Origin: a bacterium
GTDB taxonomy: Bacteria > Hinthialibacterota > Hinthialibacteria > Hinthialibacterales > Hinthialibacteraceae
DNA length: 64,000 nucleotides
Direction: 5' to 3'
Assembly: GCA_016125385.1 (NCBI GenBank)
Contig: WGLV01000050.1
Span: 58,454 to 122,453, forward strand
Numbering within the stretch: position 1 is the stretch's first letter; every line of letters begins with the position of its first letter. The notes below the pieces were generated by a model, which did not search any database, had not been told where the DNA came from, and worked only from the letters and a program-made list of their open reading frames with translations. Positions 11,993 through 46,984 of this stretch are shown here, in pieces. A program made the translations under genes and the position numbers.

Positions 11993-12589
11993 TTACTGAA
12001 TCGGTCCGCCCCGGGTAGCGAAGATATCGCCCGGTGACACGAGGCCGTTCGACGATTCATAGACGTATTTCATGCCCGCGTCAGATCGGCGAGCCAGGCC
12101 AATCACGTCGGAATCGCCCCAGGGAAATTCGCGCGCCTTGTTGGGACCGAAACTCAGGATCAAAAAACCGACCGTTCGTTCCCAAAAAGCATTACGCGCG
12201 TCGGCGCCCCCCGTATCGTTATACCACGCTCCACCGCCGTAATCGTAATAGGTCCGCTGGTTTGAAAAACTTCCCGTAGCGCCCATCCCATCCGAGGTGA
12301 AGGGATCGCGCGTGACTTCCGTGCCGCTGATATAGGCGATCGGCGTGGTGAGTTGACGCCAAGAACGGTCTTCCACATCGGGGCCGCCCCAATCGACGGG
12401 GTAACTGTTGTTATCCATCTGATACATCTGAAGGGCGGTGCTCAACGTTTTGACGTCGGCGCGAACGCGGGCGACTTTCGCCTTGATCTGTGCGTTCAAG
12501 AAGTTAGGAACCGCGATGGCGGCGAGAATTCCAATAATCGCGACAACGATCAGTAGCTCAATCAATGTAAACGCTTTACGATCCATCAT
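11993..12589 (-). CDS. Prepilin-type N-terminal cleavage/methylation domain protein (paralogue 1)
   Basis: KA/FTLIELLIVVAIIGILAAIAVPNFLNAQIKAK class III signal peptide with Glu5. Confidence 0.93.
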   Translation of the reverse strand: MMDRKAFTLIELLIVVAIIGILAAIAVPNFLNAQIKAKVARVRADVKTLSTALQMYQMDNNSYPVDWGGPDVEDRSWRQLTTPIAYISGTEVTRDPFTSDGMGATGSFSNQRTYYDYGGGAWYNDTGGADARNAFWERTVGFLILSFGPNKAREFPWGDSDVIGLARRSDAGMKYVYESSNGLVSPGDIFATRGGPIQ

Positions 12590-12760
12590 TCAGACTTGCC
12601 TCCTCGCTCCAATTAAAAAACAATCTTCCAGTTAACAGTCTCTACTCAATATATGAATTACAGGATCTCTGTTAGAGATTGATTCAATCGATCCGAGAAG
12701 GAACGGCGATTTCACCGCTCAAACAATTGTGAGATTAACCCGGTGCATCATGGGGAAAAT

Positions 12761-12797
12761 AAACCGGAGCGGGTCAGACGATCCCGCTCCGGTTTTT
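12761..12797. terminator. Intrinsic terminator downstream of the DUF6807 gene
   Basis: AAACCGGAGCGGG...CCCGCTCCGGTTTTT inverted repeat. Confidence 0.65.
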
Positions 12798-12810
12798 GGC
12801 GTTGCTGAAC

Positions 12811-14061
12811 TTATTCAAATTTCACTTCAATCCGTTCACGGTAAGCCTTGTCGGCTTCATCGACCTTGCCCGATTCGGCGCCGCCGCGATGAATCCACAG
12901 CCGGTATTTCAAGACCAGCGGGTCATCGCCCTGGCTCAGCGTGTATTTCGCCAGACCGGGCCACGAAACGCCCAGAAAACCGTAATGCCGGAGAATCCAG
13001 CCCGGCGGGAGCGGGGGCATCGGCTTGCCTTCCGAATCCACCGAGCCTTTCGGATTTTCAGGATGATCGGGCGAAATCAACACCGCGACGCCCGAGGTCC
13101 GCGAACCGCTGGCGGGTTGCGGCTGAAAGCGGGCGGAGAGATCGGCCCACCATGATGGGAACATCAGCGCATCTTTCGCGCGCATACCGCCGGCGGTGGT
13201 AATGGCGGTGTCTTCACGAGGCGAGAAGCGCAGGTTCATACCGCCATAGCCTTTTTGTTCGGTCTCGGTTCCCTGAATGGTGACGGGCGATTCAACCGCC
13301 TTCAACGTAACCTTCACGTCGATGGCCTGCCCAACGCCATTGGGGCGATAGACGACGAACTCGACCGTCTCATCGATCACCCGGCGTTCATCGATATACC
13401 ATCCATTCTGAACGCCCAATAAAGCGCAAACCGGCCCCGCCTCGCGGTAAAGCCATTTTTCGAATTTCTGATGGATGCCGTAAATCGTCCACAAATCGAA
13501 CTTGACGTCATTCACATAAACCGAGGGCCAGGCCCAGTGCAAACCGCGATGATGATAGTGATCCTTGGGGAAATCATCGGTCAGCACTTCGCCATCGATG
13601 CCATGTATGGGATGGACATACGTTGAACGGGTGCGATCCTCGGGCACGCCGTCCGGCAACTGCATTCCGTAGATGTACGTCATGATGGGGCGGCCGCAGT
13701 TAATTCGCAGATGGCCGTCACCGTCGTCATCAAACGAAAACCAGTCGTTAAAACGCGGCTCGCGCAGAGCGCCGCGCTTCTCTTTCATGTGCAAGGTGTT
13801 TTCATTCTGTCCATACCCGGCGGGCAGGATGAAGAAGAGATCGTCTGGAAATGCTTTAGACCGCTGAACCGCCAGCGGGAGTTCCACGCTGGGCGTTCCA
13901 TCATCATCCAGATTGACGAACCAGTCATGCGCGTCAGCCGAAAAAGCCGGGGCCTCGGCGTGAGCGCGAACGGGAACATCGACGGACAGCACAGACGGCC
14001 GCTCGATGATGACATTGGGCGCGGCGGTCAGAATCATCATCGCGAGAATAGAAGTAAGCAT
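12811..14061 (-). CDS. DUF6807 ('PmoA-family') secreted protein
   Basis: YVHPIHGIDGEVLTDDFPKDHYHHRGLHWAW and KGYGG motifs; signal peptide. Confidence 0.8.
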   Translation of the reverse strand: MLTSILAMMILTAAPNVIIERPSVLSVDVPVRAHAEAPAFSADAHDWFVNLDDDGTPSVELPLAVQRSKAFPDDLFFILPAGYGQNENTLHMKEKRGALREPRFNDWFSFDDDGDGHLRINCGRPIMTYIYGMQLPDGVPEDRTRSTYVHPIHGIDGEVLTDDFPKDHYHHRGLHWAWPSVYVNDVKFDLWTIYGIHQKFEKWLYREAGPVCALLGVQNGWYIDERRVIDETVEFVVYRPNGVGQAIDVKVTLKAVESPVTIQGTETEQKGYGGMNLRFSPREDTAITTAGGMRAKDALMFPSWWADLSARFQPQPASGSRTSGVAVLISPDHPENPKGSVDSEGKPMPPLPPGWILRHYGFLGVSWPGLAKYTLSQGDDPLVLKYRLWIHRGGAESGKVDEADKAYRERIEVKFE

Positions 14062-14090
14062 AATACCTCCCAAAAGTCAGATGGAATCGA

Positions 14091-14279
14091 TCACTTGTCT
14101 TTCAACAGCAATGCAATGGCGAGCAACAGGATCACTTCGGAGAAGTTGACGAAGCTGAGCGGACGAACCGGATAGGTTGAAAACTGTGCGCTGAGATCGA
14201 TTTGAAGCACTTTGAACGCGATGCCGACAATGATAGAAACAACAGCCGCATAGATGAGAATCGAGGCGAGTTTTTTCAT
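14091..14279 (-). CDS. Small two-TM membrane protein
   Basis: MKKLASILIYAAVVSIIVGIAFK...LLLAIALLL; GGAGG RBS. Confidence 0.7.
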   Translation of the reverse strand: MKKLASILIYAAVVSIIVGIAFKVLQIDLSAQFSTYPVRPLSFVNFSEVILLLAIALLLKDK

Positions 14280-14366
14280 CGATTGATCCTCCCGTTTATT
14301 CCTGTGTATGGTACAAGATTTCCAGTGAACACTATCGCATAAATTCCATCCGATCGCTAGCAGCAA

Positions 14367-15299
14367 TCAGCGCGGCATGGCTTTCCAGATCGATGACGGC
14401 ACGCGAAACACGGTTCCATGCCGCAGACCTTCGGGGACATGTAACTGGTTTGAAACATCTTCCCAGTTTTCAAAATCTCGGCTGCGTACGGCGCCGTATT
14501 CCCCCTTACGGTACTTATCAAAATAGACGTAACAATATTCGCCGATGCGGATCGCGGTGGGGCCTTCGGCCCAATCCTCCCCGCTGATGGGAGGCGTCGA
14601 TGAACTCCACGGCCCCAATGGGCTTTTTGAAAACGCCATCCGAATGTTTTTTTCAGGAGGCTTGAGCGTTTCGTTTTTGAGAAACATGACGAAATCATGC
14701 GGCCCGCGTTTGAAGATGGTCGAGTCGATCACGTTAAAACCGTCGTCATAAAATACGCGCGTATCGCTATAGGTTTCAAAATCTCGAGTCGTCGTGCAAT
14801 AGATACGGTGGTTGTAATCGGTTTCGCTGCTTCCACTGGTTTCAGTGAAGCGGCCGGGAATCGTGGTCGCCCAGAAAATAACGTATTGCTTCGACTCCTC
14901 GTCGTAAAAAATTTCCGGCGCCCAGCAGTTCCGGGCTTCCGGTTCGTGATCCATGACGGGGATATTGCGCTCGGCGGACCAGTGAATCAGATCGCTGGAA
15001 TGAGCGATTCCGATTCCATGTCCGCCCCAGCCGGTCGTCCAGACAAGATGAAAGCGCTGATCCGGCCCGAGCAGAACGCAGGGGTCTCGCATCAGTTTCG
15101 ATTCGCCGATATAGGGATGGAGAAAAGAATGTCCACCATTCAGCGCGGTCCAGTTCAGCCCGTCTTCGCTGGCGGCGAAGTGCAGACCGTCTTCTCCATT
15201 CCCCGTGAAATAAGAGAACAGCAGGCGCTCATTCGCTTTAGCGGTAAAACCTATCAAAAACAGGCAACATGCGGACAGAATCATTCGTTTCAGATTCAT
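14367..15299 (-). CDS. Glycoside hydrolase family 43-like beta-propeller
   Basis: GEDGLHFAASEDGLNW, MRDP, WAPEIFYD, VIDSTI, WAEGP, RHG motifs; signal peptide. Confidence 0.85.
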   Translation of the reverse strand: MNLKRMILSACCLFLIGFTAKANERLLFSYFTGNGEDGLHFAASEDGLNWTALNGGHSFLHPYIGESKLMRDPCVLLGPDQRFHLVWTTGWGGHGIGIAHSSDLIHWSAERNIPVMDHEPEARNCWAPEIFYDEESKQYVIFWATTIPGRFTETSGSSETDYNHRIYCTTTRDFETYSDTRVFYDDGFNVIDSTIFKRGPHDFVMFLKNETLKPPEKNIRMAFSKSPLGPWSSSTPPISGEDWAEGPTAIRIGEYCYVYFDKYRKGEYGAVRSRDFENWEDVSNQLHVPEGLRHGTVFRVPSSIWKAMPR

Positions 15300-15406
15300 T
15301 CCCATTTTCCTCCCGGATACATAGACCGAACTCAATTCGGAGATAGGATTTTCCCGCATTCTATGTTAAAAACTCTTTGAATCCAATTTGGAATGAGGGA
15401 GAGCTC

Positions 15407-16603: not shown

Positions 16604-16615
16604 GAATCAAGACGA

Positions 16616-16816: not shown

Positions 16817-16927
16817 AACGGTTTCCTCCGTGGCTTTTGTTTTTTCATTATACCGATACGATGAGTCACAAGCCAATCGGATTTTCCGGCGGGCTCGTGA
16901 TATCCGCAGGGAGAACGGCACTCCATC

Positions 16928-18013: not shown

Positions 18014-18039
18014 GCCTCAAACAGCATCGGCTCCGACGA

Positions 18040-18070: not shown

Positions 18071-18094
18071 ATAATTTTATCAAACGGCCGCCAA

Positions 18095-28580: not shown

Positions 28581-29606
28581 TCAGAGTCTTTTCACCCGCG
28601 GATTTCTGAAATAGACCGCCCGTTTGTAATCATTTCGCTGCAGTGCGATGCTTCCCATCGCGGAGTGGCTCGCAAGAGTTGGGATGGAATTCAGCGCGAA
28701 TCCATTGATGACGACGGTCTGATTTATCCTCACCCAGACGCGGCCGTCGAGATAAACGATCTCATACGCGTCCCACTCGCCGATGGGGCCGCGCGGGTCG
28801 GAAGTCGGCGCGACGAATCGCTCGATCGCTCCATTCGAGTGCGGCGTAAGAGGTTCGCCCATCGTCGCATCCAGTTGAATCTCGACCCGGTCATCGCGTT
28901 TGTATATTTCTTTCAGAGGTGTATGGATCAGAACTCCACTGTTACCACGTTCCTCGAATTTCGCGTCGAATCGCAATACGAAATTCCCAAATTGTTTTTT
29001 GGAGATCACCGCCCAGTAATCCCAACCGCCGACTTTCAACACGCCGCCTTCCTCGACTTTGGGACCGGCTTTTTCCAGCCCCTGAATTATCCATCCGCCG
29101 GGATGCTCGGCGTTCATCTCATCGAACAGCGGCTCAAACTCCGCGTCATCAATGTCATAAAGAGCAATGATTTCCGTGTTACCCGGCTGATGCAGACCGG
29201 CTGATTTGGAGTCAACCGGTCGAGCTGTTGGTTCATCCGGCGGGCTCAGCGCCGGCGAAGAGGACGTGAATGGATAATCAGCAGAGGGTGTAGGTTCGGA
29301 CGATTCCTCGATCGGAGCGGGCGTTTGAGTTACGGCAAGTGGCTGAGACGGAGAAACCGGCACGGATGGAATCAACCTTTGCAATTCATCTGCTCGTGAG
29401 GGAATTTCTTTCCGCAACGCATCGATTTGCTCGTTCAATGAGTCGAGCCGTGTATTTATGGCTTCCTCAAGCGTGAGCTTCGCGGGCGCTTCATGAAGAG
29501 ACGCCGCGATGGACTGAATCGCCTGGTGATTCCGGTATTCGCCATATCCGACCGCAATGAATCCAAACAGCAATAAAAATCCGATGATCCAAGTGGATTT
29601 ATTCAT
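28581..29606 (-). CDS. Membrane-anchored DUF1080 (3-keto-disaccharide hydrolase-like) protein
   Basis: N-terminal TM, coiled coil, Pro-rich linker, then FGNFVLRFD, GNSGV, EIQL, GEW, GSIALQ, VYFRN. Confidence 0.85.
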   Translation of the reverse strand: MNKSTWIIGFLLLFGFIAVGYGEYRNHQAIQSIAASLHEAPAKLTLEEAINTRLDSLNEQIDALRKEIPSRADELQRLIPSVPVSPSQPLAVTQTPAPIEESSEPTPSADYPFTSSSPALSPPDEPTARPVDSKSAGLHQPGNTEIIALYDIDDAEFEPLFDEMNAEHPGGWIIQGLEKAGPKVEEGGVLKVGGWDYWAVISKKQFGNFVLRFDAKFEERGNSGVLIHTPLKEIYKRDDRVEIQLDATMGEPLTPHSNGAIERFVAPTSDPRGPIGEWDAYEIVYLDGRVWVRINQTVVINGFALNSIPTLASHSAMGSIALQRNDYKRAVYFRNPRVKRL

Positions 29607-34264: not shown

Positions 34265-34265
34265 A

Positions 34266-35192
34266 TCAGAAGAACTCGGGCAACAGATCGCGGGCGTGAG
34301 GGCGGATGCGATCCGCTTCATCACGCGGAATCGAGCGGTAAGGCCAGCGTAGCGCGGGGCTGATATCACACCATCCGCCGATCATCGCCAAAAGACGATC
34401 CGCCGCCTGATGTGAATACCCCCGATCCACGATCCACGGTTCGATGTACATCCGCATGAATGCCTGGATGCGGCTCTCAAGTTCCAGCGCCGATTCCATA
34501 TCGGTTCGCATCCCATCCGTCCAGCGTTGCGCCGCCGAAGGATTCAGACACGCGACGTTTGAATACGCGCCGTGCGCGCCGCGGCGCATCCCGCTGGCGA
34601 GGTGATGCCCCGGCACGAAGACCGACAGCCCTCGTGCGCATTCTCTCACCCGCCGATACCAGTCATCGCCGCCGCCCCCCACCTTCACTCCGATGAACGA
34701 AGGAACCTGCTCATGAATCGAGCGCCAGTCTTCCGGCTGCAATACGCGTTTGGCGAACGAAGGGTTATACAACACCAGCCCTACTGGATGCGCGGCCTCA
34801 GCCATGCGTTGAAAAAAATCGAGCGTTTCATCATCGTTCAATGGAAACCAGTCAGGCAAAACGATTTGTACCGCGCCGGGCTGAAGCGGGGCGATCCGCC
34901 TGAGTCGCTGAAGAGACGCCCACGGGCTGGGGTGGCTCACGCCGAGTTGAAACGCTTTGCCCGCCCGATTACAGTAATCCGCAATGATGAGGCTGATCTC
35001 GTCAAATTCGTCTTCAGTCTGATTGTAAAACTCGCTGCTTGTCCCGTTGGTATAGATTCCATCCACGCCGGATTCCAGCAAAATTGCAATCTGATCGCGC
35101 AACCGGCTATAATCGATCCGGTTGTCATTCAGCCACGGGATCAATACCGGCGCCCAGTTTCCTTTCAGCTCGTTCCAGACGAGAGGTTTCAT
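34266..35192 (-). CDS. Dihydrodipicolinate synthase/class I aldolase family protein
   Basis: GVDGIYTNGTSSEF, LVLYNP, IGVKV Schiff-base Lys. Confidence 0.88.
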   Translation of the reverse strand: MKPLVWNELKGNWAPVLIPWLNDNRIDYSRLRDQIAILLESGVDGIYTNGTSSEFYNQTEDEFDEISLIIADYCNRAGKAFQLGVSHPSPWASLQRLRRIAPLQPGAVQIVLPDWFPLNDDETLDFFQRMAEAAHPVGLVLYNPSFAKRVLQPEDWRSIHEQVPSFIGVKVGGGGDDWYRRVRECARGLSVFVPGHHLASGMRRGAHGAYSNVACLNPSAAQRWTDGMRTDMESALELESRIQAFMRMYIEPWIVDRGYSHQAADRLLAMIGGWCDISPALRWPYRSIPRDEADRIRPHARDLLPEFF

Positions 35193-35224
35193 GTCCGCGC
35201 CTTTCCGTTGTGGATTTTCAATCG

Positions 35225-36037
35225 ATGAAAACGATTCATTTTTATCTGCACAGTTACGGCGAACACGATGAAAACAACAAAATCGGCCCGGTAACCTGGC
35301 CGCATTTCGATCTCTTGTTCGTGCATGAAGGCGAGATCTTTCTCCATCTGCTGGAGGGCGATCACATTCGCCTGGGCGAGCGTCAGGGCGTGTTGATTTA
35401 CCCGCTGACCCCTTTTCAGGGATACGCGCTCACTGAAATCGCCAGGACATCGGTTCAGCATTTCGACATCAACAAAGACGCTCATTACAAACCTCAGGTC
35501 GTTCAATCCCTGCTGGGCAAAAGCCGCGGATACGAGATTTTTCAAGGCGAGTATTCGCCGAACCTGTTCCACAACATCGACCTGACCATCCGGTGGGCCA
35601 CTTACGAAGACGATCCATTTTTATACGACCTGCGCGTGGCGGCGATGGTGCTGGTTCTCGGCGAATTAAAATCGAAAAAATTCCAGAAACGCAAGATGAA
35701 CCATCATGAAGAGGCCATCGCCGATCTGGTGGATCGGTTGCGCGTCAACTGGCGGGCACACGGCATGAGCGTGGATGACATGGCCCGTGAAGTGGAGCTT
35801 TCAACCAGTCATTTCCGGGCGTTGTTCCGCAACTTCGTCGGTGCGTCGCCCGGCCAGTTTTTATTCAACCTGCGCATGCTCGAAGCCAAACGCTACCTGC
35901 GCGAGACTCTCACGCCCATCAAGGAAATCAGCGAAAAATTAGGTTATAAAAACCTGTCTCATTTTTACCGCGCGTTTAAATCGCATGAAAGCATCTCTCC
36001 CAGAGAATACCGCGATAAGAACATCATCCGCGGTTGA
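35225..36037 (+). CDS. AraC-family transcriptional regulator
   Basis: C-terminal double HTH: SVDDMA...LSTSHFRALF...IKEISEKLGYKNLSHFYRAFK...SPREYR. Confidence 0.92.
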   Translation: MKTIHFYLHSYGEHDENNKIGPVTWPHFDLLFVHEGEIFLHLLEGDHIRLGERQGVLIYPLTPFQGYALTEIARTSVQHFDINKDAHYKPQVVQSLLGKSRGYEIFQGEYSPNLFHNIDLTIRWATYEDDPFLYDLRVAAMVLVLGELKSKKFQKRKMNHHEEAIADLVDRLRVNWRAHGMSVDDMAREVELSTSHFRALFRNFVGASPGQFLFNLRMLEAKRYLRETLTPIKEISEKLGYKNLSHFYRAFKSHESISPREYRDKNIIRG

Positions 36038-37232
36038 GATCGACGCCGGTTTCGACCTCGCTCGCGGGCGCGAGCCATTGCAGGGTGAAGATCGCCAGAG
36101 TGATTCGACTGTATCCATCCCGTTCATACAGACAAGCGATGCGCCCGTCCGGCAACGCCGCGAGGCAGGAATACGCGGAAGATCCGTCGTACAGTTCGCG
36201 CTCGATCAGCCAGGTTTCACCCTCGTCATAACTCATTCTGACTGTCATGTGGACTCGGTTGGATGAACTGGCGGGGTTAGAGAACAGCACGCGGCTTTTT
36301 CCATTTTCCGGCCAGGAATAGCGCAATATCGAAGCCTGGCAGATCGGTTCAACCAGCCGCTCATCGAACGAGAGGCCGCCCCAAGTTTCACCGCCGTCAC
36401 GGCTGATTGAAACGGCTCGTTTTCCGCCTTTGGATTCATCCCCTCCTTCTGAACCCCAATAGTTCCGCATGTTCATCATCAGGTTTCCATCCGCCTGTTC
36501 GACAACCTGGCATTCATCCGTGTATTTGCCGACCGTGCCGCCCAGCGTCCAGTTTTCGCCGCCATCATCACTGTAAAATGCGTGAGACATCTTGATCCAT
36601 TTTCCATCCACTTGTTCACGATGGTCGCACGGAATAACCAGCCTGCCTTTGTGAGGCTCACGCTGTTTCTGAATTCCAACGCCCGGTCCAGTGGCGTACC
36701 AGCCCCAGCCCTCTTTTTTGACGCTCGCGGTGATCAGGCGAGGTTCGCTCCAGGTGAGACCATCGTCATCGCTGAACGTCACGAGCACATCGTCATTGTT
36801 TCGGCAGAATGTCAGCCAGATTCGTCCTGTGGCGCCGTCCACCACGGGGCACGGGTTGCCGATGGTGATCTTATCCGTACCGCCTTCTTCATAAACAACG
36901 TTCTGCTCGGACCACGTTTTTCCTGCATCGATGCTGCGTTTGACGACCAGATCAATATCGCCATGATCGCCGCCTCCGGTTTTGCGGCCCTCACAAAATG
37001 CAAGCAGGCTCCCTTTTTTCGTCACCAGAAGGGCGGGGATACGATAGGTGTGATATCCATCCGTTCCTCCGGTGAATACATCCTGCTGAAAGAGTTGAGC
37101 GGCTTGAGCGATGAGCGCGTTATGATTCCCATCCGGTTGATTCGCGATTTGCGGGTCGCCTGCATGGGTGCACGGTACGATCAGCAACGCAGTGAATACA
37201 ATCTGAAAAAAGAAGAAGGTTATTCTTTTCAT
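36024..37232 (-). CDS. Exo-alpha-sialidase (GH33)
   Basis: YRIP motif, CEGRK, several Asp boxes (SIDAGKTW, SDDDGLTW, SDDGGENW, SRDGGETW, SYDEGETW), DECQ, AYS; signal peptide. Confidence 0.92.
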   Translation of the reverse strand: MKRITFFFFQIVFTALLIVPCTHAGDPQIANQPDGNHNALIAQAAQLFQQDVFTGGTDGYHTYRIPALLVTKKGSLLAFCEGRKTGGGDHGDIDLVVKRSIDAGKTWSEQNVVYEEGGTDKITIGNPCPVVDGATGRIWLTFCRNNDDVLVTFSDDDGLTWSEPRLITASVKKEGWGWYATGPGVGIQKQREPHKGRLVIPCDHREQVDGKWIKMSHAFYSDDGGENWTLGGTVGKYTDECQVVEQADGNLMMNMRNYWGSEGGDESKGGKRAVSISRDGGETWGGLSFDERLVEPICQASILRYSWPENGKSRVLFSNPASSSNRVHMTVRMSYDEGETWLIERELYDGSSAYSCLAALPDGRIACLYERDGYSRITLAIFTLQWLAPASEVETGVDLNRG

Positions 37233-37646
37233 GATTTCTCCCCAGAATGGATTTAATGGAACAAACCGGAATCCATTGTAGAGAATATTAGAAATTCTCC
37301 AAGAAAAAATTAGCGTACGCATCACCGTTTCAAGATTTTTTTCAATCGTTTATGGTAATACGAGAAAAAGCAAATTATTTCAAAAACATGAATATTTCTT
37401 ATATTTAATCAACATATAAGCCCTGTATCCGAACTGAAATCTTTCCTTTCAATCTAGTCATAAATGGCAAATAAACAATCATTACCGGTAAAGACACGTT
37501 GAAGTTTTTCTCTTATGATTCTTTCAGATTGACAACCTCATTCTCTGAACGGTTAAGCGACCCGCAGTCCCCACCCAGCCAGTTCAACTCGATTGCATCA
37601 ACGGTTCGCTTTCAATTTCATTTCATTTTTATCTGGAGGAAATCAA

Positions 37647-39692
37647 ATGAACCGATTGCCGTCTTATCTCTTTGCACTATCGTGCACGTTTTTCATCTCA
37701 GGCCTCACATTCGCACAGGAGCAGCCAATTCCGATCGTTCAGGATGGTTCGCTGGTGGAAGCATACGCGGAAGTCGTTGGCGACGCATGGACACAGGCCG
37801 ATGGTTATCTGCAACAACAGGGGACCCATCAATATCTCTGGGCCAAGCCCGTCATTGGACCGGGCGACTTTCACGTAACCGCCGTATTGAAGCTCCAGGA
37901 GCGATTCAATGATGAAGGACGCGGCTCGGCGGCGTCTTTCGCCATCAATGACATGCTTCAATCGGATGGAGCGAATGGAAGCAATTTCGGATTCGTCGGG
38001 GGTAGCGGAGAGCTCTTCACCGAAGGTAATTTCGTGGCGAGTTTTACCGACTTGGGCGATACGCCCATCATGGAAGATCAGGATTTCACGCTCGATTTCA
38101 TCCGTGAAGGCGATACTTACCGCTTTCTGCTCGATGGTAATGAAGTGCTGTCGCTGCCCGCGCCTGAAGAAGCGGGCGATCCCGTATTCCGCAGCGGATA
38201 CTATCGCGTCGGACTGCGACCGTGGCGCAGCCACATGTTTATTAAATCATTTACGATCGTATCGGGTGCGGCGAGTTTCGACCCGATTGAAGACAAAATC
38301 GAAATCGTCGCCAATGGCGTCGAGAAAAACGCGGTCGAAGTGGGTGAACCTTGGATCGACGACGATGGTTTTATCGAAAATTTCGAAACAGGTAATTTTA
38401 TCTTCAGCGACAGACCCATATTCGGTTCCAATTATCATGTGGTGGCCCGCCTGCAGATGGAGGATTTTGATGGCAGCGCCGCGGCCTTTACCATTAACGG
38501 CGACAGCAACGTTGGCTTTTCAGGCGGAAGCGGAACCATGTTTCTGGAAGGTCCATTCTTTTCGAACGCCCCTTCTCTCAGCATCGCTCCCCCCATTGAA
38601 GCCAACACGTATTTTGATTTTGAGATGATCAGCCAGGATCAGAAATTGCGGTTTCTGATCGACGGACAGGAAATTCTAGCGATGGATCAGCCCGGCGATT
38701 TCGTCGGTTTCGTTGGATTCCGGCCCTGGCGGAGCGTGATGCGCATCGCTGATTTTTACGTGGAGCCGTTACAGGAAACCGTCGTGGTTCCACCGGAGGT
38801 CGTCCGCTCTATGGCCGAAGGACGAGCCGCCGTCTTTATGCCCGGCGAAACAATAGCTGGAGTCCGGTTAACCGCCACGGTCGCGGAAGGCCAGACCAGT
38901 AATGCGGTAATTACAGACGTCCTGCCCGAAGGTTGGAGTGCGCAAAACCTGCAAGCGGATAATGGAAGCGCTTCATACGCCAATGGCCGGATCACATGGA
39001 GCCTGGATAACGCACAGAGCAGCGTACGACTGACCTACGATCTATCCGCTCCGAGCGATCCGGCCAGCACCAAAGCGGAGTTCAGCGGATCGGTCGATAC
39101 GACCGGCGTGGATGGCTTGATTACCGGTCTTGATGAACTCGTGCAGGCGGTTGGCCCCAATCAGGAAGTCTACATCGTGCGGGATGGAAGATTGACCGAA
39201 TACGCTGAAACGCTTGGCGAGCCCTGGCTCGAAGTAGCGGGAGCGATGGAACGGACCGGGACGAATAACTTTTTGTTGAGCTCCGTCGCGGTCGCCGACG
39301 TCGATTATGAAATCGATGCAGAGCTGACTCTGTTCGGAGTCGGCGGAACCGCATCCTCCATCAATATCCGGACGGTTCCGGGCGGCGCACAAAGCAATTT
39401 TGGTTTTGAAGGCGGCGGTGGAACCTTTTTCGTGGAAGGCCCCTTCTTCGATCCTCGGCCCAGCTTCGACTACACCACCATCGCGGAAGCGGTTCCCTTC
39501 ACTTTCGCCATGCAGCGCACAGGAACCAGCGTCGATTTTCTCATGGACGATCAGGTGATCCACACCGAAGAAGAAAATCACGGTGAAGCGTTCACCATCG
39601 GGCTTCGTCCTTGGCGCAGCCGGATGCAGGTCAGAGAATTCGTGATCCGCACATTCGCTGCCACAGCGGTTCCGGAATGGCCGCTCTATTAA
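37647..39692 (+). CDS. Secreted protein with three ConA-like repeats and an Ig-like spacer; C-terminus VPEWPLY
   Basis: Signal peptide; three repeats each with G(D/E)xW, SNxGFxGG, FxEG and GxRPWRSxM; GGAGG RBS. Confidence 0.85.
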   Translation: MNRLPSYLFALSCTFFISGLTFAQEQPIPIVQDGSLVEAYAEVVGDAWTQADGYLQQQGTHQYLWAKPVIGPGDFHVTAVLKLQERFNDEGRGSAASFAINDMLQSDGANGSNFGFVGGSGELFTEGNFVASFTDLGDTPIMEDQDFTLDFIREGDTYRFLLDGNEVLSLPAPEEAGDPVFRSGYYRVGLRPWRSHMFIKSFTIVSGAASFDPIEDKIEIVANGVEKNAVEVGEPWIDDDGFIENFETGNFIFSDRPIFGSNYHVVARLQMEDFDGSAAAFTINGDSNVGFSGGSGTMFLEGPFFSNAPSLSIAPPIEANTYFDFEMISQDQKLRFLIDGQEILAMDQPGDFVGFVGFRPWRSVMRIADFYVEPLQETVVVPPEVVRSMAEGRAAVFMPGETIAGVRLTATVAEGQTSNAVITDVLPEGWSAQNLQADNGSASYANGRITWSLDNAQSSVRLTYDLSAPSDPASTKAEFSGSVDTTGVDGLITGLDELVQAVGPNQEVYIVRDGRLTEYAETLGEPWLEVAGAMERTGTNNFLLSSVAVADVDYEIDAELTLFGVGGTASSINIRTVPGGAQSNFGFEGGGGTFFVEGPFFDPRPSFDYTTIAEAVPFTFAMQRTGTSVDFLMDDQVIHTEEENHGEAFTIGLRPWRSRMQVREFVIRTFAATAVPEWPLY

Positions 39693-39781
39693 CCGGAAAG
39701 ACCGTGTGAGTTACAATCGCGGGACGTTTTTCATTCACCGAAAGACGTCCCGCCCTTCACCCATTAGCACTGAGGGGACCC

Positions 39782-40375
39782 ATGGACCGGAAGAACGCAT
39801 TTACGTTAATCGAACTATTAATCGTCGTGGCGATCATCGGCATCCTCGCCGCGATCGCCGTCCCCAACTTTTTAAACGCGCAGATCAAGGCGAAAGTCGC
39901 CCGGGTGCAGGCTGACTTTCAGGCCTTCAGCGTGGCGCTTGAAACCTACAGCCTGGATAACGGCAAGTACCCCGTCGTCAACAACTGCGGCGCCGTGGAT
40001 GACCCGATGCTGTTCAGCGGACTGATGGCGTTGCGCCCACTGACCACGCCGGTTTCGTACATGAGCACGTTGTACAAAGACCCGTTCAACGAAGACGGCG
40101 AAGCGCTTACGCCGGGCGGCAGTCAACTGAACCCGCTCGGGTATTACTGGTACATGGATCGGTACGGCCGCTCGTATGGTGGATGCGGCGCCACGGCGGG
40201 TTCGCGTTTCTTTCAGAACAAAAACCAGCAGTGGTCGATGAAAAGCGTCGGGCCTGACAAACAGGAAAACGTCAACGGTTTTCTGGGCAGCAACGAACAG
40301 GGTTACGTCACCATTCTCTATGACATGACCAACGGCCTGAACAGCCTGGGCGACGTCTATCGCTTCGGCCCCTGA
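39782..40375 (+). CDS. Prepilin-type N-terminal cleavage/methylation domain protein (paralogue 2)
   Basis: NA/FTLIELLIVVAIIGILAAIAVPNFLNAQIKAK. Confidence 0.93.
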   Translation: MDRKNAFTLIELLIVVAIIGILAAIAVPNFLNAQIKAKVARVQADFQAFSVALETYSLDNGKYPVVNNCGAVDDPMLFSGLMALRPLTTPVSYMSTLYKDPFNEDGEALTPGGSQLNPLGYYWYMDRYGRSYGGCGATAGSRFFQNKNQQWSMKSVGPDKQENVNGFLGSNEQGYVTILYDMTNGLNSLGDVYRFGP

Positions 40376-40451
40376 TATCATGTTTCCGGTGTTTCCGGAG
40401 ATTCATTGTTGGGGATGGTCGTTTTCAATTCTATTGTGAGAGTAAAACTCA

Positions 40452-41930
40452 ATGTCATCCGGTTTTCATATTATCGATTACGCCGTTTTGTTCGCCTACC
40501 TGGCCGCCATGATCGGCATCGGTTTTTATTTTTCCCGCAGGGAAGACACCACGGAGCGCTTCTTTGTGGGAAACCGGAAAATCGCGTGGTGGGCGGTGGG
40601 CGTTTCGATTTTCGCGACGCAGCTCAGCGCCATCACTTACATTTCGATCCCCGGCATGGCGTTTGAAAACGACTGGGCCTGGCTGGTATTCAATCTGGGG
40701 ATTCCTGTCGTCGGCGTGTTCGTCATTACGTTTTTCCTGCCGATTTACCGCAAGAAACAATACACATCGATCTATGAAATTCTTGAAGAGCGTTTCGGCC
40801 CCGAGACACGCGCCTATGGCGCTCTGGCGTACATACTCATGCAGGTCGGCCGGGTAGCGATCGTACTTTATCTGCCCGCGCTGGCGTTGGCGGAGGTCAC
40901 CGGCGCGCCGGTCTACTGGATGATCATACTGATGGGCGTACTCGCGACGGTATACACCGTCATGGGAGGAATCGAGGTCGTGATCTGGACCGACGTCGTG
41001 CAGGCGATCGTGTTGGTGGCCGGCGCCGTATTGGCGATTTTTCTGATCGGGATGAAAGTCGACGGAGGCTTCACCGGCATCATCGACATCGGCCGGGCGA
41101 ATCAGAAATTCGCCATGATCCATACTGACCCAGGCGTTTCCAAAGACCTGATCTGGTTTATTCTGATCGGGGCGTTTTTCACCAATCTGGTCCCCTACGC
41201 GTCAGACCAGACCGTGGTTCAGCGTTATTTCACGGTCGAATCAGACCGTGAAGCGCGTAATTGTCTCTGGCTCAGCGTTCTGGTTTCGGTTCCAGCATCG
41301 TTTCTATTTTTCTTTCTCGGAACCGCCTTGTACGCGTTTTACTCGACGCACCCGGGTTTGTTGCAGGATGGCATCCAATACGACCGGATTTTCCCCTACT
41401 TTATCGTTCACGAAGTACCCGCCGGCGTTTCGGGTCTGCTCATCGCCGCGATCTTCGCCGGCTCGATGTCCAGTCTCGATTCGAGCCTGAACTCAATCGC
41501 CACGGTTTGTGTGACGGACTTTTATAAACGCTTCCGCAACCCGAAAAGCAGCGACCGGCAACGCTTGCGCCTCGCCCAGATCATCACCATCGTCTCGGGC
41601 GCACTCGCGACCATCGTGGCCATTCAGGTCGCGGAAAGCCTGTTGAGCCATCCCGAACAGAAAGGCGCGTGGGATTTGTTCGTCGCGGTACAAGGTCTTC
41701 TTGGTGGAGTTCTTGCTGGCGTATTTTGCGTAGGCTTGTTTACCCGGCGCGCGAATCAGATGGGCGTCGTCTCCGGTCTGGTGATCAGCACCGCCCTGCT
41801 GGCGATCGTCAAGTATGAATTCCAGTGGCACTCCCAGACCTACGCCGCGCTCGGAATCGTTTCCGCGTTCACGATCAGTTATGTGTTCAGCATAATCACC
41901 AGCCCCGCCCGGCGGGCCGATCGATCATAA
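40452..41930 (+). CDS. Sodium:solute symporter, SiaT-like sialic acid transporter
   Basis: SIFATQLSAITYISIPG, WTDVVQ, DQTVVQRY, MSSLDSSLNS; adjacent to nanA/nanM. Confidence 0.9.
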   Translation: MSSGFHIIDYAVLFAYLAAMIGIGFYFSRREDTTERFFVGNRKIAWWAVGVSIFATQLSAITYISIPGMAFENDWAWLVFNLGIPVVGVFVITFFLPIYRKKQYTSIYEILEERFGPETRAYGALAYILMQVGRVAIVLYLPALALAEVTGAPVYWMIILMGVLATVYTVMGGIEVVIWTDVVQAIVLVAGAVLAIFLIGMKVDGGFTGIIDIGRANQKFAMIHTDPGVSKDLIWFILIGAFFTNLVPYASDQTVVQRYFTVESDREARNCLWLSVLVSVPASFLFFFLGTALYAFYSTHPGLLQDGIQYDRIFPYFIVHEVPAGVSGLLIAAIFAGSMSSLDSSLNSIATVCVTDFYKRFRNPKSSDRQRLRLAQIITIVSGALATIVAIQVAESLLSHPEQKGAWDLFVAVQGLLGGVLAGVFCVGLFTRRANQMGVVSGLVISTALLAIVKYEFQWHSQTYAALGIVSAFTISYVFSIITSPARRADRS

Positions 41931-41961
41931 TGCTTCATTGAAGCCCGGAAGGAATCAATGT

Positions 41962-42891
41962 ATGCCTGACAAACTCAACGGTCTTATCGCGGCATCGCAC
42001 ACCCCGATGCATTCCGACGGTTCTATTCATTTTGACATCATCGAAAGCCAGGTTCAGTTTTACCGCGACAACCCCATCGACGGAGCGTTTATCTGCGGCA
42101 CGACCGGTGAGGGGAAACTGTTGAGTCTGGATGAGCGGAAACAAGTCGCCGAGCGATGGCTTGAATGCAGCCGGGGTGATTTTCCTGTGGTGATTCACGT
42201 TGGCGATGACTGCCTCAGCGATTGCGTCAGCCTGGCGAAACACGCGCAGGAACGCGGCGCGTTCGCGATCTCTACTCTGGCGCCGAGTTATTACCGCCCC
42301 GCCGACGTCGCGGACCTGGTTGATTATTGTCAGGCGGTGGCGAGCGCGGCCCCCAAACTGCCATTTTATTTTTACCACATTCCAACGCTCACTCACGTGC
42401 ATTTTTCCATGCTGGATTTTCTTATGCTGGCCGAGAAGCAAATTCCCACTCTGGCGGGAATCAAATACACGCATAACGATTTCGTCGACCTTCTGGCCTG
42501 TCAGCGATTCAATCAGGGGCGATACAACATCCTTTTTGGCCGCGATGAGTCGCTTCTCGCTGCGCTGTCGTATGGAATCGATGGAGCGGTAGGCAGCACC
42601 TACAATTACGCCGCGCCATTGTACAAAGCGCTCATTCAGGCGTTTCAGGACGGCAAACTGGACGAAGCGCGCGATCTGCAGGCCGCTTCAATTGAACTGA
42701 TTCGCGTCATCACCCGCTATAACGAAATCGCCGCGGGCAAAGCGATCATGACGCATCTCGGCGTTGATTGCGGCTCCGTGCGCGCTCCCCTGAAACCGCT
42801 TCGGGAAAATGAACGCGCCTGCATTGACAGCGCGCTTCAACAAAATCGATTTGAACCCTTTTTATGCAAACAGGGTTGCCATTCCAACTAA
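41962..42891 (+). CDS. nanA: N-acetylneuraminate lyase
   Basis: GTTGE, YFYHIP, GIKYT catalytic Lys, GRDE, GSTYN. Confidence 0.88.
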   Translation: MPDKLNGLIAASHTPMHSDGSIHFDIIESQVQFYRDNPIDGAFICGTTGEGKLLSLDERKQVAERWLECSRGDFPVVIHVGDDCLSDCVSLAKHAQERGAFAISTLAPSYYRPADVADLVDYCQAVASAAPKLPFYFYHIPTLTHVHFSMLDFLMLAEKQIPTLAGIKYTHNDFVDLLACQRFNQGRYNILFGRDESLLAALSYGIDGAVGSTYNYAAPLYKALIQAFQDGKLDEARDLQAASIELIRVITRYNEIAAGKAIMTHLGVDCGSVRAPLKPLRENERACIDSALQQNRFEPFLCKQGCHSN

Positions 42892-42902
42892 GGGATCGAC
42901 TG

Positions 42903-43961
42903 ATGCGTATTACACGAACCGTTTTTACTCTATGCGCCCTCTGCCTGGTTCCCGCCTTCGGAATCACAGACGAGACGCATATTGAATGGAAACAACTCCC
43001 GAAACGCCCCATCGCGGTTGGCGGTCAATTCGCCGGAATCAGCAACGGCGCGTTACTGGCGGCGGGCGGCGGGGCGTTCCCTACTCCATTGTTTGAAGGG
43101 GGAAAAAAGGTCTGGGTCGACTCGATTTTCGTGCTCGAACCCGATGCGTCTGAGTGGAAACCCGCTGGAGCGTTGTCCCGACCATTAGCTTACGGAGCCT
43201 CAGTGAGCGATCAAAAAGGACTGATTCTGATCGGCGGCGGCGATGCGGAAACGCATTACACGAGCGTGACTCGCCTAATCTGGAAAGACGGAACGATTGA
43301 ACATCAATCTCTGCCGGATCTGCCTCAACCGTGCGCGTTTCAGGCGGCGGCGCTCATCGGTTCCACTCTGTATGTCGCTGGCGGACAATCAAGCCCCAAA
43401 ACTTCGGAAGCGCTTCATACTTTCTGGCGCCTCGATCTGAAACAACCTCAGGAAGGCTGGCGCTCGCTGGAGGCATGGCCGGGTCCGGGCCGTATTCTGC
43501 CTGTGGCAGGGACATCAGGGAACGATTTTTATCTGTTCAGTGGTTGTGAACTGTATAGCGATCAGAATGGAGAGACGAAACGGCGCTATCTGACTGACGC
43601 ATACCGATATCGACCAGGCAACGGCTGGGAGCGATTGCCCGATCTCCCCCGCCCCGCTACCGGGGCGCCGACTCCCGCATTAACAGCGAATGACCAGATC
43701 ATGATCTTCAGCGGCGACAGCGGCGAATACGCGGATCGCGTATGGGAACTGAAAGACAAACACCCCGGATTCGATCGGGATATCATCTCGTTCGACTTGA
43801 AAACAAATCAATGGCGGCGCGCAGGCGGCGTGCCGTTCAGTCTTGCGACAACCCCTTCCGTTCAATGGCGCGGTTGTTACATCATCCCTGGTGGAGAGGA
43901 TCGTCCGGGACACCGAACCCCTGTCGTTTACAGCGGGAAAATATCACCGGAGCATCCATAA
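42903..43961 (+). CDS. nanM: Kelch-repeat N-acetylneuraminate mutarotase-like protein
   Basis: Kelch GG repeats, PLAYGAS, WPGPGR, GGEDRPGHRTP; signal peptide; nan context. Confidence 0.8.
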   Translation: MRITRTVFTLCALCLVPAFGITDETHIEWKQLPKRPIAVGGQFAGISNGALLAAGGGAFPTPLFEGGKKVWVDSIFVLEPDASEWKPAGALSRPLAYGASVSDQKGLILIGGGDAETHYTSVTRLIWKDGTIEHQSLPDLPQPCAFQAAALIGSTLYVAGGQSSPKTSEALHTFWRLDLKQPQEGWRSLEAWPGPGRILPVAGTSGNDFYLFSGCELYSDQNGETKRRYLTDAYRYRPGNGWERLPDLPRPATGAPTPALTANDQIMIFSGDSGEYADRVWELKDKHPGFDRDIISFDLKTNQWRRAGGVPFSLATTPSVQWRGCYIIPGGEDRPGHRTPVVYSGKISPEHP

Positions 43962-44455
43962 GGTTTAACTCTTTCAGCGATGTTTTACCTCGCGCCATCG
44001 CGATCTAAAAGAAGTATCTTTTATAAATTGACAACAGGTTTTTTCCTCCAATCGGAATGGTGTTATCAGCAAAAACCATTAGATTCATCATCATCTACAA
44101 AATATAAAATCATTGGTCATTCAATAAATCAAAAGCAATTCAGATGATTTGTTTTAGATTACAGTAATTTCCTCAGTTACAAATCCCACATGTAAAAGAT
44201 GAACGGCAATCAATCATAAGAACATAATATATCACTTAATTTCAAAATACTCTCCTCTCCCATAAAGTCAAATATTTCAGAATGATGCTTCATCGGCTCT
44301 CAAGAATAAAAACCACCCTTTCATTATCAGACCAATCAGAGATTATATCTTGGACTTAAATTTGCAGTACACATGGCATGACTTTCAAGTACTCAACGAG
44401 CCGGAATCGGAGAATTCACAAACTCCACACCATGAGATTACAGGGAGTAAATATC

Positions 44456-46141
44456 ATGAAGTTAACTATTGGAGGAAAGATGGCGCTTGGCTTTGGCGTG
44501 GTCATCGGTTTAACGGTGGCGTTATCCGCCTTTACGTATTACAGCCTGAACAGACTCGCTCAATTGGAACACCTGACGGCGGAGCGTTCGAACGAAGCGT
44601 CTCTTGCCATGGAAGCCAGCGGGATGGGGCCGGAACTCTATCAGATCATCGCCGACGCGATTATCAATCGCGATTTGGACGAAACAGCGACGAGCTGGAA
44701 TGAGGTGAAAACCGAGGCGCTGGACGATCTGAAAAACCTTGCCAGCGTTGCGGATACTCCGGAAGAAATCAATCTCGTTCAAAAAGGGGATACCGCATTG
44801 AAAAACGTGATCTCAACGTTTGAAACTCAATTTCTCCCTATTCTTCAATCGACGGAAGGCATAAATAAGCAAATAACCGATATGGATGACGTCATCGACG
44901 AGTATGTCAACGACATTCATACCCCGCTGCTGACGGTCTCCCAAATGTTTGAAAAAGCCAGCGAAGACGCGGAAGAGCTATTTGCTGAGGTCCGTCAATC
45001 CACGCTTTTCACGATCGCCGTTTTCAGCGTTGTCGTCATTCTGGCGTCATTACTCATCGCTTGGAGAATCACGCTGATGATCGTACGTCCCATTAAAGAG
45101 ATTGCTCACGCTACGGAACGCATTGCGGAGGGCGACCTGACGACGGAAATCAACATTGATTCCAGCGACGAAATCGGCCAGATGGCCGCTCAATTCTCCA
45201 GCATGGTCGCTAACCTGCGTAAAGTAATCGCCGGAATCCAGGAATCATCGCAACAACTTGCCTCCAGCAGCGAAGAGTTATCATCAGCCGCTCAGAATCT
45301 CTCCAACGCCGCCACCGAGCAGGCGTCCAGTCTCGAAGAAACCAGCGCTTCCATTGAAGAACTGACCAGTTCCATCGATCAGAACGCGGAAAACTCGAGC
45401 CAGGCGAATTCCGTTACCTCAAGCGCCGTCGGTGAAGCCGATCGGGGCGGACAAGCCGTCATGGAAACGGTCGTCGCCATGAAAAAGATCGCCGAGCAGA
45501 TCGGCATCATCAATGACATCGCCGATCAGACCAATCTGCTGGCGCTTAACGCCGCGATCGAAGCGGCTCGCGCCGGCGAAATGGGTAAGGGATTCGCTGT
45601 GGTGGCGGTTGAGGTCAGAAAACTGGCGGAAAGAAGTCAACATGCCGCGAAAGAGATTAATGAACTGGCGGTCAGCAGCGTAAAAAAGGCGGAAGACGCG
45701 GGCGGAATGATTCAACGCGTGGTTCCCGCCATTCAGGAAGCCTCGCGCCTGGTTCAGGAGATCGCGGCCGCGTCAGAAGAACAGGCGGGCGGGTCTGAAC
45801 AGATTCGAACGGCGCTGGGACAACTCGATCAGGTCACTCAGCAGAACTCGAGCTCATCCGAAGAAATCTCATCATCCAGTGAAGAACTGGCTGAACAGGC
45901 CCAGATGCTTCAGGAGATGATCGCGCAATTCAAAATCTCCAATCAGCCTGATAATAAACGGTTCCAATCCAAAACAGCGTCTCCGGCGCGCGGCGGGTAT
46001 ACAACCAACGCCAGTTTCAAAACCGGATCATCAACGGATACCCACGCGTCCAGGTTGAGACCGTATCTCGACGAGGATGACCACTCCGTCAAGCGATTCG
46101 AAGTAACCCAGAACGGGCGCGATGAATTTGAGGAGTTTTAA
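44456..46141 (+). CDS. Methyl-accepting chemotaxis protein
   Basis: Two TMs, 4-helix-bundle-like sensor, [43 protein letters not shown]-terminal pentapeptide EFEEF. Confidence 0.97.
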
Positions 46142-46190
46142 TACAAGAAGTCAGTATTCTCAAAAATGAAGTGTTTGATGAATGCGCATC

Positions 46191-46224
46191 ATCCCGTGAA
46201 TTGAGTACAATTCACGGGATTTTT
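46191..46224 (+). terminator. Intrinsic terminator
   Basis: ATCCCGTGAATTG-AGTA-CAATTCACGGGAT followed by TTTT. Confidence 0.75.
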
Positions 46225-46396
46225 GTTTATAAAAAGCATTTTTGATGACCAACCTGATCGATCGATTCAGTGATTATTTTTTGGTGATTTATTTTTTACC
46301 ATACTACTGCTTATCGATTTACATTGATTCGCTCCCGCCTTACTGTTAACTTACATACAAACATATGCTCACATCCACATGCCAAGGTTATCCATC

Positions 46397-46984
46397 ATGA
46401 ACAGGCGCATCAAAACCGGTTTTACGTTGATTGAACTCCTCATTGTGGTCGCGATAATCGGCATCCTCGCCGCCATCGCCGTGCCGAATTTTCTCAACGC
46501 TCAGATCAAGGCGAAAATCGCCCGCGTCCATGCGGACGTTCGTGGCCTGTCTACCGCGATCGAGATGTATTCACTCGACCATAATTCCTACCCGTGGTTC
46601 AATGGGTATGGGTACCCCGCGCAATACAATGCGATTTCATACAGGTTAATTCCGCTGACCACTCCGGTCTCGTATTGCGACCTGAGCGTTTGCGATCCAT
46701 TTCTGGAGTTGCAGGGAGCAGAGGGATACGAAGACGAGATGTTGCGCGAATCGTACAATTACCGGAATTATCAATGTTTTTCGGAAGCCTATCACTGGAA
46801 CGTCTACGCTTTGAACAGCCTCGGGCCCGACCGCATCGCGAACAAAGGGCTTCAGGTTGAGCCGTGGGCGCGAGGGATGGTCGCGCCGGAAACGGTGACG
46901 ATCTATCAGTCGAGTAATGGATTGATCAGCGCTGGAGACATGCCTCATACCGGCGGAGACACGCGCTACCGGAATCCAGATTAA
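46397..46984 (+). CDS. Prepilin-type N-terminal cleavage/methylation domain protein (paralogue 3)
   Basis: TG/FTLIELLIVVAIIGILAAIAVPNFLNAQIKAK. Confidence 0.93.
   Translation: MNRRIKTGFTLIELLIVVAIIGILAAIAVPNFLNAQIKAKIARVHADVRGLSTAIEMYSLDHNSYPWFNGYGYPAQYNAISYRLIPLTTPVSYCDLSVCDPFLELQGAEGYEDEMLRESYNYRNYQCFSEAYHWNVYALNSLGPDRIANKGLQVEPWARGMVAPETVTIYQSSNGLISAGDMPHTGGDTRYRNPD

Follow-up and report, generated by a model that had tools for sequence, protein, structure and literature searches.

Prepilin-like families of the DUF1559 and H-X9-DG types have undergone large expansions in Planctomycetota, Verrucomicrobiota and Lentisphaerota. In Planctopirus, 68 DUF1559 paralogues are described in the available part of the source, two of them essential (PMC10632474). 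For the type IV pili of Streptococcus sanguinis, the accessible text of two reports describes minor pilins that bear lectin or vWA domains as modules (the PilA-PilC complex and PilB; PMC9934059, PMC8179133), and pili-like fibres of Planctomycetes are stated, in the excerpts at hand, to bind dextran before its uptake (PMC5394234). Here we analyze three genes for prepilin-like proteins in a 64,000-nt stretch of DNA (the window) from a member of the phylum Hinthialibacterota (OLB16), for which the available sections of the paper describing the phylum mention Tad pili only (PMC9324843). A first-pass annotation of the window had described these genes as three dispersed paralogues, each beside carbohydrate genes, and had proposed that they encode interchangeable pilin subunits whose variable heads capture glycans in a role analogous to that of SusD.

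The window genes belong to an 81-copy family of orphan GspG-type pseudopilins

All three open reading frames (ORFs; Table 1), referred to below as the 11993, the nan-linked and the 46379 copy, were confirmed. Their products are about 50% identical in pairwise comparison, and the motifs listed in the first-pass annotation proved to be invariant columns of the alignment. Each protein matches Pfam N_methyl together with the start of T2SSG (profile positions 2–40 of 108; 20.8–25.9 bits, cut-off 21), and the top NCBIfam match of each is TIGR01710 (GspG), at 61.6–63.8 bits and under the equivalog cut-off of 88.85.

The genome is a 5.53-Mb assembly in 77 contigs, for which a simple codon-usage caller written for this analysis returned 4128 genes (87% coding). 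A genome-wide count of the paralogues, proposed along with the original annotation, was run with a hidden Markov model (HMM) built on the three window proteins. This HMM matched 98 proteins at E ≤ 1e-3, of which 81 reached at least 85 bits—our definition of the family—and the remainder scored at most 69 bits, including classical pseudopilins within type II secretion system (T2SS) clusters; the protein of the 11993 copy scored 350.9 bits. Other counts for the same genome were 99 hits in a six-frame motif scan and 86 six-frame matches at E ≤ 1e-20. The dispersed copies are thus real, but three was an understatement: the 81 copies make up about 2% of the genes and are spread over 41 contigs, with only seven adjacent pairs. 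Solo transcription units account for 41% of the copies (vs 29% of all genes), and same-strand gaps have a median of ~130 nt (vs 57 nt for other genes).

Domain scans covered 73 of the 81 members, the other eight lying outside the fetched loci. N_methyl (PF07963) and TIGR02532 matched all 73, as did TIGR01710, one of five such models and the one with the lowest E-value of the scan (4.3e-20); T2SSG (PF08334) matched 31 copies at E ≤ 1e-3, and only four Pfam families matched any copy at all. At the same threshold, DUF1559 (PF07596) and H-X9-DG (TIGR04294) matched none of the 73, and there was no SusD-family match among them. The analogy to DUF1559 drawn at first therefore holds for copy number and dispersal, but not for membership. 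Across all 81 copies, residue −1 is G (52 copies) or A (29), F+1 and E+5 are invariant, G14 is found in 77 and P22 in 80, and the leaders are basic and mostly 4–7 residues long. The fold is that of GspG with ~65 extra residues in four loops, and a conserved N-G-L-x-S-x-G-D motif sits at the place equivalent to the GspG C-terminal calcium-binding loop, a likeness of position only. In sum, the three window genes come from a lineage-specific family of orphan GspG-type major pseudopilins that numbers 81 copies.

Within the phylum, every one of the 35 genomes searched, from 27 genera, gave matches to the family: 30 to at least 93 per genome at E ≤ 1e-20, with up to 93 candidates scored in each (first-look candidates numbered up to 307). 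Searched against 1.84 billion proteins, a profile built from 73 members matched 3385 cluster representatives at E ≤ 1e-30. Public entries for close relatives go by the names Candidatus Hinthialibacter, 'Omnitrophota' metagenome-assembled genomes or simply 'bacterium'.

Some members contain in-frame stop codons. A single TAA each was seen in three pseudopilin orthologues of one related genome (G008; C26:48052–48627, C14:84197–84793 and C161:2565–3131) and in one copy of the genome studied here (C37:82972–83541), while TGA occurs in matches from G022 (two) and G007 (one). These copies could be pseudogenes, assembly errors or instances of recoding.

A constant helix carries conserved, paralogue-specific heads

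Across the 81 paralogues, mature residues 1–36 show 84% identity in protein and 74% in DNA. Different codons are used for 52% of the identical residues in this part, and in all 3160 pairs the DNA identity of the conserved 5′ part stays at or below 95%, so that no recent gene conversion was detected there. The higher identity in protein than in DNA, together with the absence of near-identical pairs, argues that the constant helix is maintained by selection rather than by gene conversion.

The four loops, in contrast, differ between paralogues to the point of being unalignable, yet they are conserved between orthologues, with 75–90% identity for the nan-linked copy and 53–57% in the 11993 and 46379 groups. 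In these three orthologue groups, loop pN/pS was 0.09–0.42 at a pS of ~0.8, ratios that are rough as synonymous sites are saturated. Each head is a conserved, paralogue-specific surface, and this conservation between orthologues argues against a fast-changing decoy repertoire. Most copies tested persist in 8 to 19 of 19 related genomes (two copies in 5 and 3). The notion of interchangeable pilin subunits with variable heads is well compatible with a constant prepilin N-terminus in 81 of 81 copies, a helix under selection and loops conserved between orthologues.

The variable segments had also been called aromatic-rich. They are (13.4% W+Y+F vs a proteome mean of 8.8%), but this is a general pseudopilin trait: the heads of the two classical, cluster-encoded GspG proteins of the same genome reach 12.2%, and aromatic richness was rejected as a sign of glycan binding for this reason.

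A weak tie to carbohydrate genes, seldom kept in evolution

Two categories of carbohydrate-related genes—glycan-degrading or -binding families, and sugar uptake or catabolism families—were set before the control was viewed. Around the 81 copies, the sample took in the 264 genes at positions ±1 and ±2 that do not belong to the family; the comparison set was 261 genes from 38 random seven-gene blocks. All were scanned with Pfam and assigned by hand. Within ±2 positions, 43 of the 264 family neighbours (16.3%) were carbohydrate-related vs 26 of 261 control genes (10.0%; odds ratio [OR] 1.76, p 0.038), or 29 of 261 (11.1%; OR 1.56, p 0.099) once carbohydrate esterases were counted in the control. 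Degrading and binding families alone differed less (8.7% vs 5.7–6.9%, not significant), and at ±1 only, 23 of 140 family neighbours were carbohydrate-related (p 0.16). Counted per copy, 32 of 81 had at least one carbohydrate gene within ±2, as did 38 of 114 control positions (p 0.45), which leaves 49 copies with none; housekeeping neighbours such as RelA/SpoT, FtsK, MetH, RpoD, SMC and MreB were common, and TonB_dep_Rec matched none of the 264 neighbours.

A whole-genome permutation, the second check suggested at the outset, gave a more favourable result. Of the genes in five abundant sugar families—picked after the neighbours had been seen, and comprising Sulfatase (34 genes), 3keto-disac_hyd (24), Laminin_G_3 (9), GFO_IDH_MocA (69) and AP_endonuc_2 (29)—20 of 164 lay within ±2 of a copy where 11.5 were expected (P 0.016). 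Individually, only Laminin_G_3 (3/9) and AP_endonuc_2 (5/29) stood out; Sulfatase (3/34) and GFO_IDH_MocA (6/69) did not. Among genes directly downstream and co-directional, 12 of 44 were carbohydrate-related (OR 3.0, p 0.007; uncorrected and post hoc). Such genes are about three times as frequent in the window as in the control (~14 of 46 genes by hand count vs 29 of 261), and it is this unusual richness that accounts for the glycan adjacency noticed at first. Neighbours inside one carbohydrate-rich window overstate the functional link to glycan loci.

Comparison of orthologous loci is more informative and points the same way. The nan-linked copy is the sole window copy with conserved synteny: its orthologues are 80–87% identical, sodium:solute symporter (SSS) and NanA genes follow in four of five loci (L001, L003, L004 and L005; not L002), the upstream gene for a 699-aa protein is kept in three of five, and the BNR_2 sialidase-like gene is present at L001 and L005. 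Orthologues of the 46379 copy (57–68% identical) were found in 15 of 19 related genomes, and none of ten loci had Metallophos, GH97 or BNR_2 within ±6 kb. For the 11993 copy, orthologues in other genera are 61–74% identical, and at none of six loci did DUF6807, GH43 or a 711-aa gene lie beside them, nor was any neighbour common with the window. Within both groups, loci of different genera had no flanking genes in common, save for one pair.

We further followed nine pairs out of the 44 co-directional ones (gaps of at most 61 nt), six with a carbohydrate-related downstream gene and three without. For each search, the best loci (12 at most) were compared, each with 1.5 kb of sequence on either side. 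The downstream gene recurred in none of 11 loci for SGL, for a fucosidase (one locus without room) and for AP_endonuc_2 (eight loci with full room), in one of 11 for GFO and in none of five for Peptidase_S66; in the SGL and AP_endonuc_2 groups, some loci of lower identity may contain paralogues. A LamG protein of 492 aa recurred in two of 11 loci. The picture was different for a 686-aa protein with three LamG domains (gap 12 nt), found in nine of 11 loci, and for a 1009-aa protein that has no Pfam match and whose gene overlaps the pilin stop by 44 nt, found in eight of eight. Peripla_BP_2 recurred in two of three loci, in a group where an upstream gene for a 429-aa tail protein (see below) is kept in three of three. 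Overall, the pseudopilin family is only weakly tied to carbohydrate genes, and the tie shows little persistence in evolution. The proposal that each copy stands beside carbohydrate genes in the manner of SusD did not hold as a rule: 49 of 81 copies lack such a gene within ±2, and the adjacency is absent from the orthologous loci of the 11993 and 46379 copies.

Large proteins (at least 500 aa) with no Pfam match had also been considered as typical neighbours; at ~17 of 264 vs 13 of 261 controls (hand count), they showed no excess and were discarded.

A subset of copies is paired with secreted proteins that share a C-terminal tail

The conserved partners have similar C-termini: W-S-L-Y, W-P-L-Y, W-A-L-F, W-L-M-Y and F-R-L-Y. 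In the genome studied here, 35 proteins end in W-x-[LM]-[YF] (chance expectation 0.6), with an extended consensus of T-x-V-x-D-W-x-L-Y and a median length of 624 aa. Six of the 35 immediately adjoin a family gene, all of them co-directionally (null 1.2, P 0.001), and eight lie within ±2 positions (null 2.4, P 0.003); with a broader tail pattern, eight of 51 are immediate neighbours (P 0.0004). In other genomes, tail ORFs abut non-orthologous pilin genes at three loci (L120, L164 and L183), with orthologous pairs at L004 and L005, and the tail of the 699-aa protein is present in three of three orthologues (ending WSIY, WSLY and WSLY). Synteny was kept in most loci for four of five tail-bearing partners vs two of 14 other neighbours (p 0.017), a comparison assembled by hand from small numbers.

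Pfam domains were matched in 15 of the 35 tail proteins, namely CotH plus LTD in four, carbohydrate-binding module (CBM) family CBM9 in three, Laminin_G_3 in two, and CBM96, FG-GAP, Lcl_C, PPC, DUF4403 and a faint DUF6250 in one each; none of the 35 had a glycoside hydrolase catalytic domain according to Pfam. We infer that a subset of copies is stably and co-directionally paired with large, non-enzymatic, secreted tail proteins, which have LamG domains, CBMs or no known domain. A modified link to glycans therefore survives, in that some copies are stably paired with secreted proteins of lectin or CBM type.

Two further loci contain tail genes. A second one in the window (59844–64000, continuing to C58:122895) encodes a 1532-aa CotH plus LTD protein. 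At C48:112541–117403 (L014), a pseudopilin and the tail protein with three LamG domains, a pair seen in nine of 11 genera, are followed by a LamG plus BNR_4 protein without the tail.

Assembly machinery is encoded away from the family

The first-pass annotation had noted that no pilus or T2SS machinery is adjacent and had suggested locating the peptidase, ATPase, platform and secretin genes. All four kinds are present in the genome, and none is on the contig of the window: Peptidase_A24 gave two matches, T2SSE 11 over the cut-off, T2SSF 14 matched stretches and Secretin eight. They correspond to two prepilin peptidases, at least four T2SS-like clusters (on C2, C8, C50 and C53) and type IV pilus ATPases. 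All 81 family copies lie outside these clusters.

A separate small cluster at C71:56739–60653 (L038) encodes an extracytoplasmic function (ECF) sigma factor, a zf-HC2 anti-sigma factor, a divergent family pseudopilin and a 362-aa GspF-like protein, as well as a 352-aa protein with a prepilin-like N-terminus.

A shared pool of subunits and its alternatives

We give an even chance to the reading that the family constitutes a common pool of interchangeable pseudopilin subunits and that some of them are coupled to binders with the tail, the coupling being its less secure part. The copies would be cleaved by the prepilin peptidases of the genome and would enter shared type-IV-filament machines as interchangeable subunits, and a short pseudopilus or pilus would then present any of ~80 head surfaces. 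Assembly in a common fibre is suggested by the invariant helix, which exceeds what cleavage and membrane anchoring need. The family would be a genome-wide pool rather than part of individual glycan loci, given how weak the adjacency to enzymes is and how little of it persists in evolution. Since some copies seem to have stable partners among the tail-bearing secreted proteins, the fibre might also export or hold these binders, resulting in pilus-based polymer capture.

Several points weigh against this pooled-subunit reading. The entry of cleaved copies into shared filament machines is deduced from sequence, the genes come from a simple caller made for this analysis, and a machinery gene (the GspF-like gene on C71) adjoins only one of 81 copies. 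No position is conserved in the 200-nt upstream regions of the 81 genes, where only T-rich k-mers came up. As to the coupling, a tail protein stands beside only 6–8 of 81 copies, and for 27–29 of the 35 tail proteins no family gene lies at ±1 or ±2; without the three pairs seen before the test was framed, three of 32 tail proteins remain at ±1 (null 1.08, P 0.09) and five of 32 at ±2 (P 0.07). The contrast in synteny between tail-bearing partners and other neighbours likewise comes from a small set put together by hand.

The position of the genes, with 80 of 81 away from assembly genes and solo units at 41% vs 29%, would also suit proteins that never polymerize. On that account, the prepilin signal serves export and inner-membrane anchoring, and the heads act as tethered periplasmic binding or scaffold proteins, as might be imagined from the sugar-binding proteins of the Sulfolobus bindosome, which have class III signal peptides (PMC3047682, available part) and the similarly expanded DUF1559 family, whose function is given as unknown in the text at hand (PMC10632474). 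We regard this as rather unlikely: 36 residues have stayed nearly invariant in 81 old paralogues although synonymous sites are saturated, which suggests packing in a filament core, G14 and P22 are retained as is typical of assembling pilins, and the fold is that of a polymerizing major pseudopilin, not of a solute-binding protein. A step beyond pooled subunits is the idea that the paralogues and the 35–50 secreted proteins with the T-x-V-x-D-W-x-L-Y tail form the halves of one phylum-specific, as yet undescribed secretion or surface-display system of the type IV filament kind. The tail would be a sorting or docking signal read by the heads or the pseudopilus, and each paralogue-specific head would serve as an adaptor for the export or retention of certain binders of lectin or CBM type, amounting to modular polymer capture; we consider this unlikely.

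A dedicated glycan-capture unit per locus, each head binding the substrate of its own locus as SusD does, is quite improbable in our view. The excess among neighbours within ±2 (p 0.04–0.10), the post hoc permutation and the downstream genes speak for it, as does the nan-linked copy with its SSS and NanA genes. Set against these are the majority of copies with no carbohydrate gene nearby, many of them beside housekeeping genes, the per-copy comparison with control positions, the unremarkable counts for Sulfatase and GFO_IDH_MocA, and enzyme neighbours that are not conserved (GH97 0/10, DUF6807 and GH43 0/6; SGL, fucosidase and AP_endonuc_2 0/11; GFO 1/11) at orthologous loci that, one pair excepted, have no flanking genes in common across ten genera. 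Moreover, the 73 scanned copies had no SusD match and the 264 neighbours no TonB-dependent receptor. Finally, a large set of alternative major subunits in which the core is constant and the exposed loops vary, encoded by dispersed and often monocistronic genes without a common upstream motif, could be a surface-variation repertoire in which heads are switched to evade fibre-binding phages or predators. This we hold to be very improbable, as the loops are conserved between genera (75–90% or 53–57% identity, pN/pS 0.09–0.42), contrary to what diversifying selection would produce; neither cassette recombination nor gene conversion shows in the 3160 pairs (none above 95% DNA identity in the 5′ part), and most tested copies occur as single orthologues in 8 to 19 of 19 related genomes (5 and 3 for two of them).

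Genes of the window

Table 1 Pseudopilin genes of the window and their neighbours (positions in the window)
Feature	Position	Strand	Remarks
GspG-type orphan pseudopilin paralogue (11993 copy)	11993–12589	minus	198 aa
DUF6807 protein	12811–14073	minus	Pfam; upstream of the 11993 copy
GH43-like protein	14367–15359	minus	Pfam; upstream of the 11993 copy
BNR_2 sialidase-like gene	36024–37325	minus	Pfam BNR_2, E 3e-33; divergent from the 699-aa gene
Secreted 699-aa protein	37593–39692	plus	Three repeats of one domain; C-terminal W-P-L-Y tail; upstream of the nan-linked copy
GspG-type orphan pseudopilin paralogue (nan-linked copy)	39782–40375	plus	197 aa
Sodium:solute symporter (SSF)	40452–41930	plus	Pfam
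DHDPS/NanA-like lyase	41938–42891	plus	Pfam
NANM/Kelch epimerase-like protein	42864–43961	plus	Pfam
GspG-type orphan pseudopilin paralogue (46379 copy)	46379–46984	plus	201 aa; alternative start 46397
Metallophos phosphoesterase	47004–47921	plus	Pfam
GH97	47912–49900	plus	Pfam
BNR_2 protein	49945–51018	plus	Pfam

The 11993 copy is probably a separate transcription unit, with a promoter-like site at 12675–12648 and a 16-bp hairpin directly past the stop (11944–11978), both of them consensus matches only. A terminator-like hairpin (46191–46220) lies upstream of the 46379 copy, which is separated from the Metallophos gene by 19 nt; its alternative start is an internal Met that would give a more typical leader of eight residues. 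Of the neighbours named in the first-pass annotation, DUF6807, SSF, DHDPS, NANM, Metallophos, GH97 and BNR_2 were confirmed by Pfam, but the 711-aa 'GH-like' gene was not, its GH42/GH2 matches being faint (E 0.03–0.05). The 699-aa protein had only faint matches at Pfam E ≤ 0.1 (DUF6250, LRR_adjacent and DUF11).

The nan-linked copy lies within an apparently complete sialic-acid-type locus (34266–43961) that also has a second DHDPS-like gene and an AraC regulator and of which most parts are kept in four related genomes. Elsewhere in the window, positions 1–3699 (minus strand) hold the 3′ end of a giant ORF, ~4936 aa long, that extends past the window start according to the gene call. The genome also shows expansions of GFO_IDH_MocA (69 genes), AP_endonuc_2 (29) and 3keto-disac_hyd/DUF1080 (24), with examples in the window at 28581–29606 and 58463–59761; this trio is presumably associated with oxidative 3-keto-glycoside cleavage.

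Comparison with known systems

Across a candidate phylum of polymer degraders, about 2% of genes encode one type of secretion-pilus subunit. In the literature, we found nothing on the family, the tail or its tie to the family, or pairs of pseudopilins and binders, most subscription journals lying outside the coverage. Given conserved heads and stable lectin or CBM tail partners, the vague idea that pili catch polysaccharides turns into testable gene pairs.

What the family has in common with SusD is the proposed role of substrate capture at the surface, and no more: fold and family are different, there is no lipoprotein signal and no adjacent SusC partner, and the genes are not bound to loci. 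GspG (EpsG, PulG, XcpT; TIGR01710, PF08334) is much closer, with its prepilin leader, F+1, E+5, G14 and P22 and the lack of a conserved disulfide; we take the motif order P-x-DPF, Y-x-Y, S-x-G-x-D and a C-terminal G-D-I region to be shared as well. Unlike GspG, the family proteins have ~65 extra residues in four loops and are encoded by 81 dispersed genes instead of one inside a gsp operon, the window copies score below the equivalog cut-off, and the sequence of the N-terminal helix is more like that of type IVa pilins from Geobacter and Myxococcus.

With the pili of S. sanguinis, as far as the accessible text describes them, the family shares the association of a type IV filament with concanavalin/LamG-type glycan-binding modules, the physical link being putative here. 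There, pilin and module form one fusion protein, with its gene in the pilus operon, whereas the LamG and CBM proteins paired with pseudopilins here are products of separate genes, with Sec-type N-termini and the C-terminal tail. The dextran-binding fibres of Planctomycetes have already put into print the idea that a polymer degrader binds polysaccharide by its fibres ahead of uptake. These fibres, in the excerpts available, were seen in another phylum, whereas the Hinthialibacterota family is known here from its genes. In scale, the nearest counterpart is DUF1559/H-X9-DG, likewise a very large, dispersed and lineage-wide family of prepilin-type paralogues. The Hinthialibacterota proteins differ from it by their C-terminal domain, their shorter length (~195 aa mature) and their phylum, and their multiplication parallels the unexplained expansion of DUF1559 in Planctomycetes with another domain and in another lineage.

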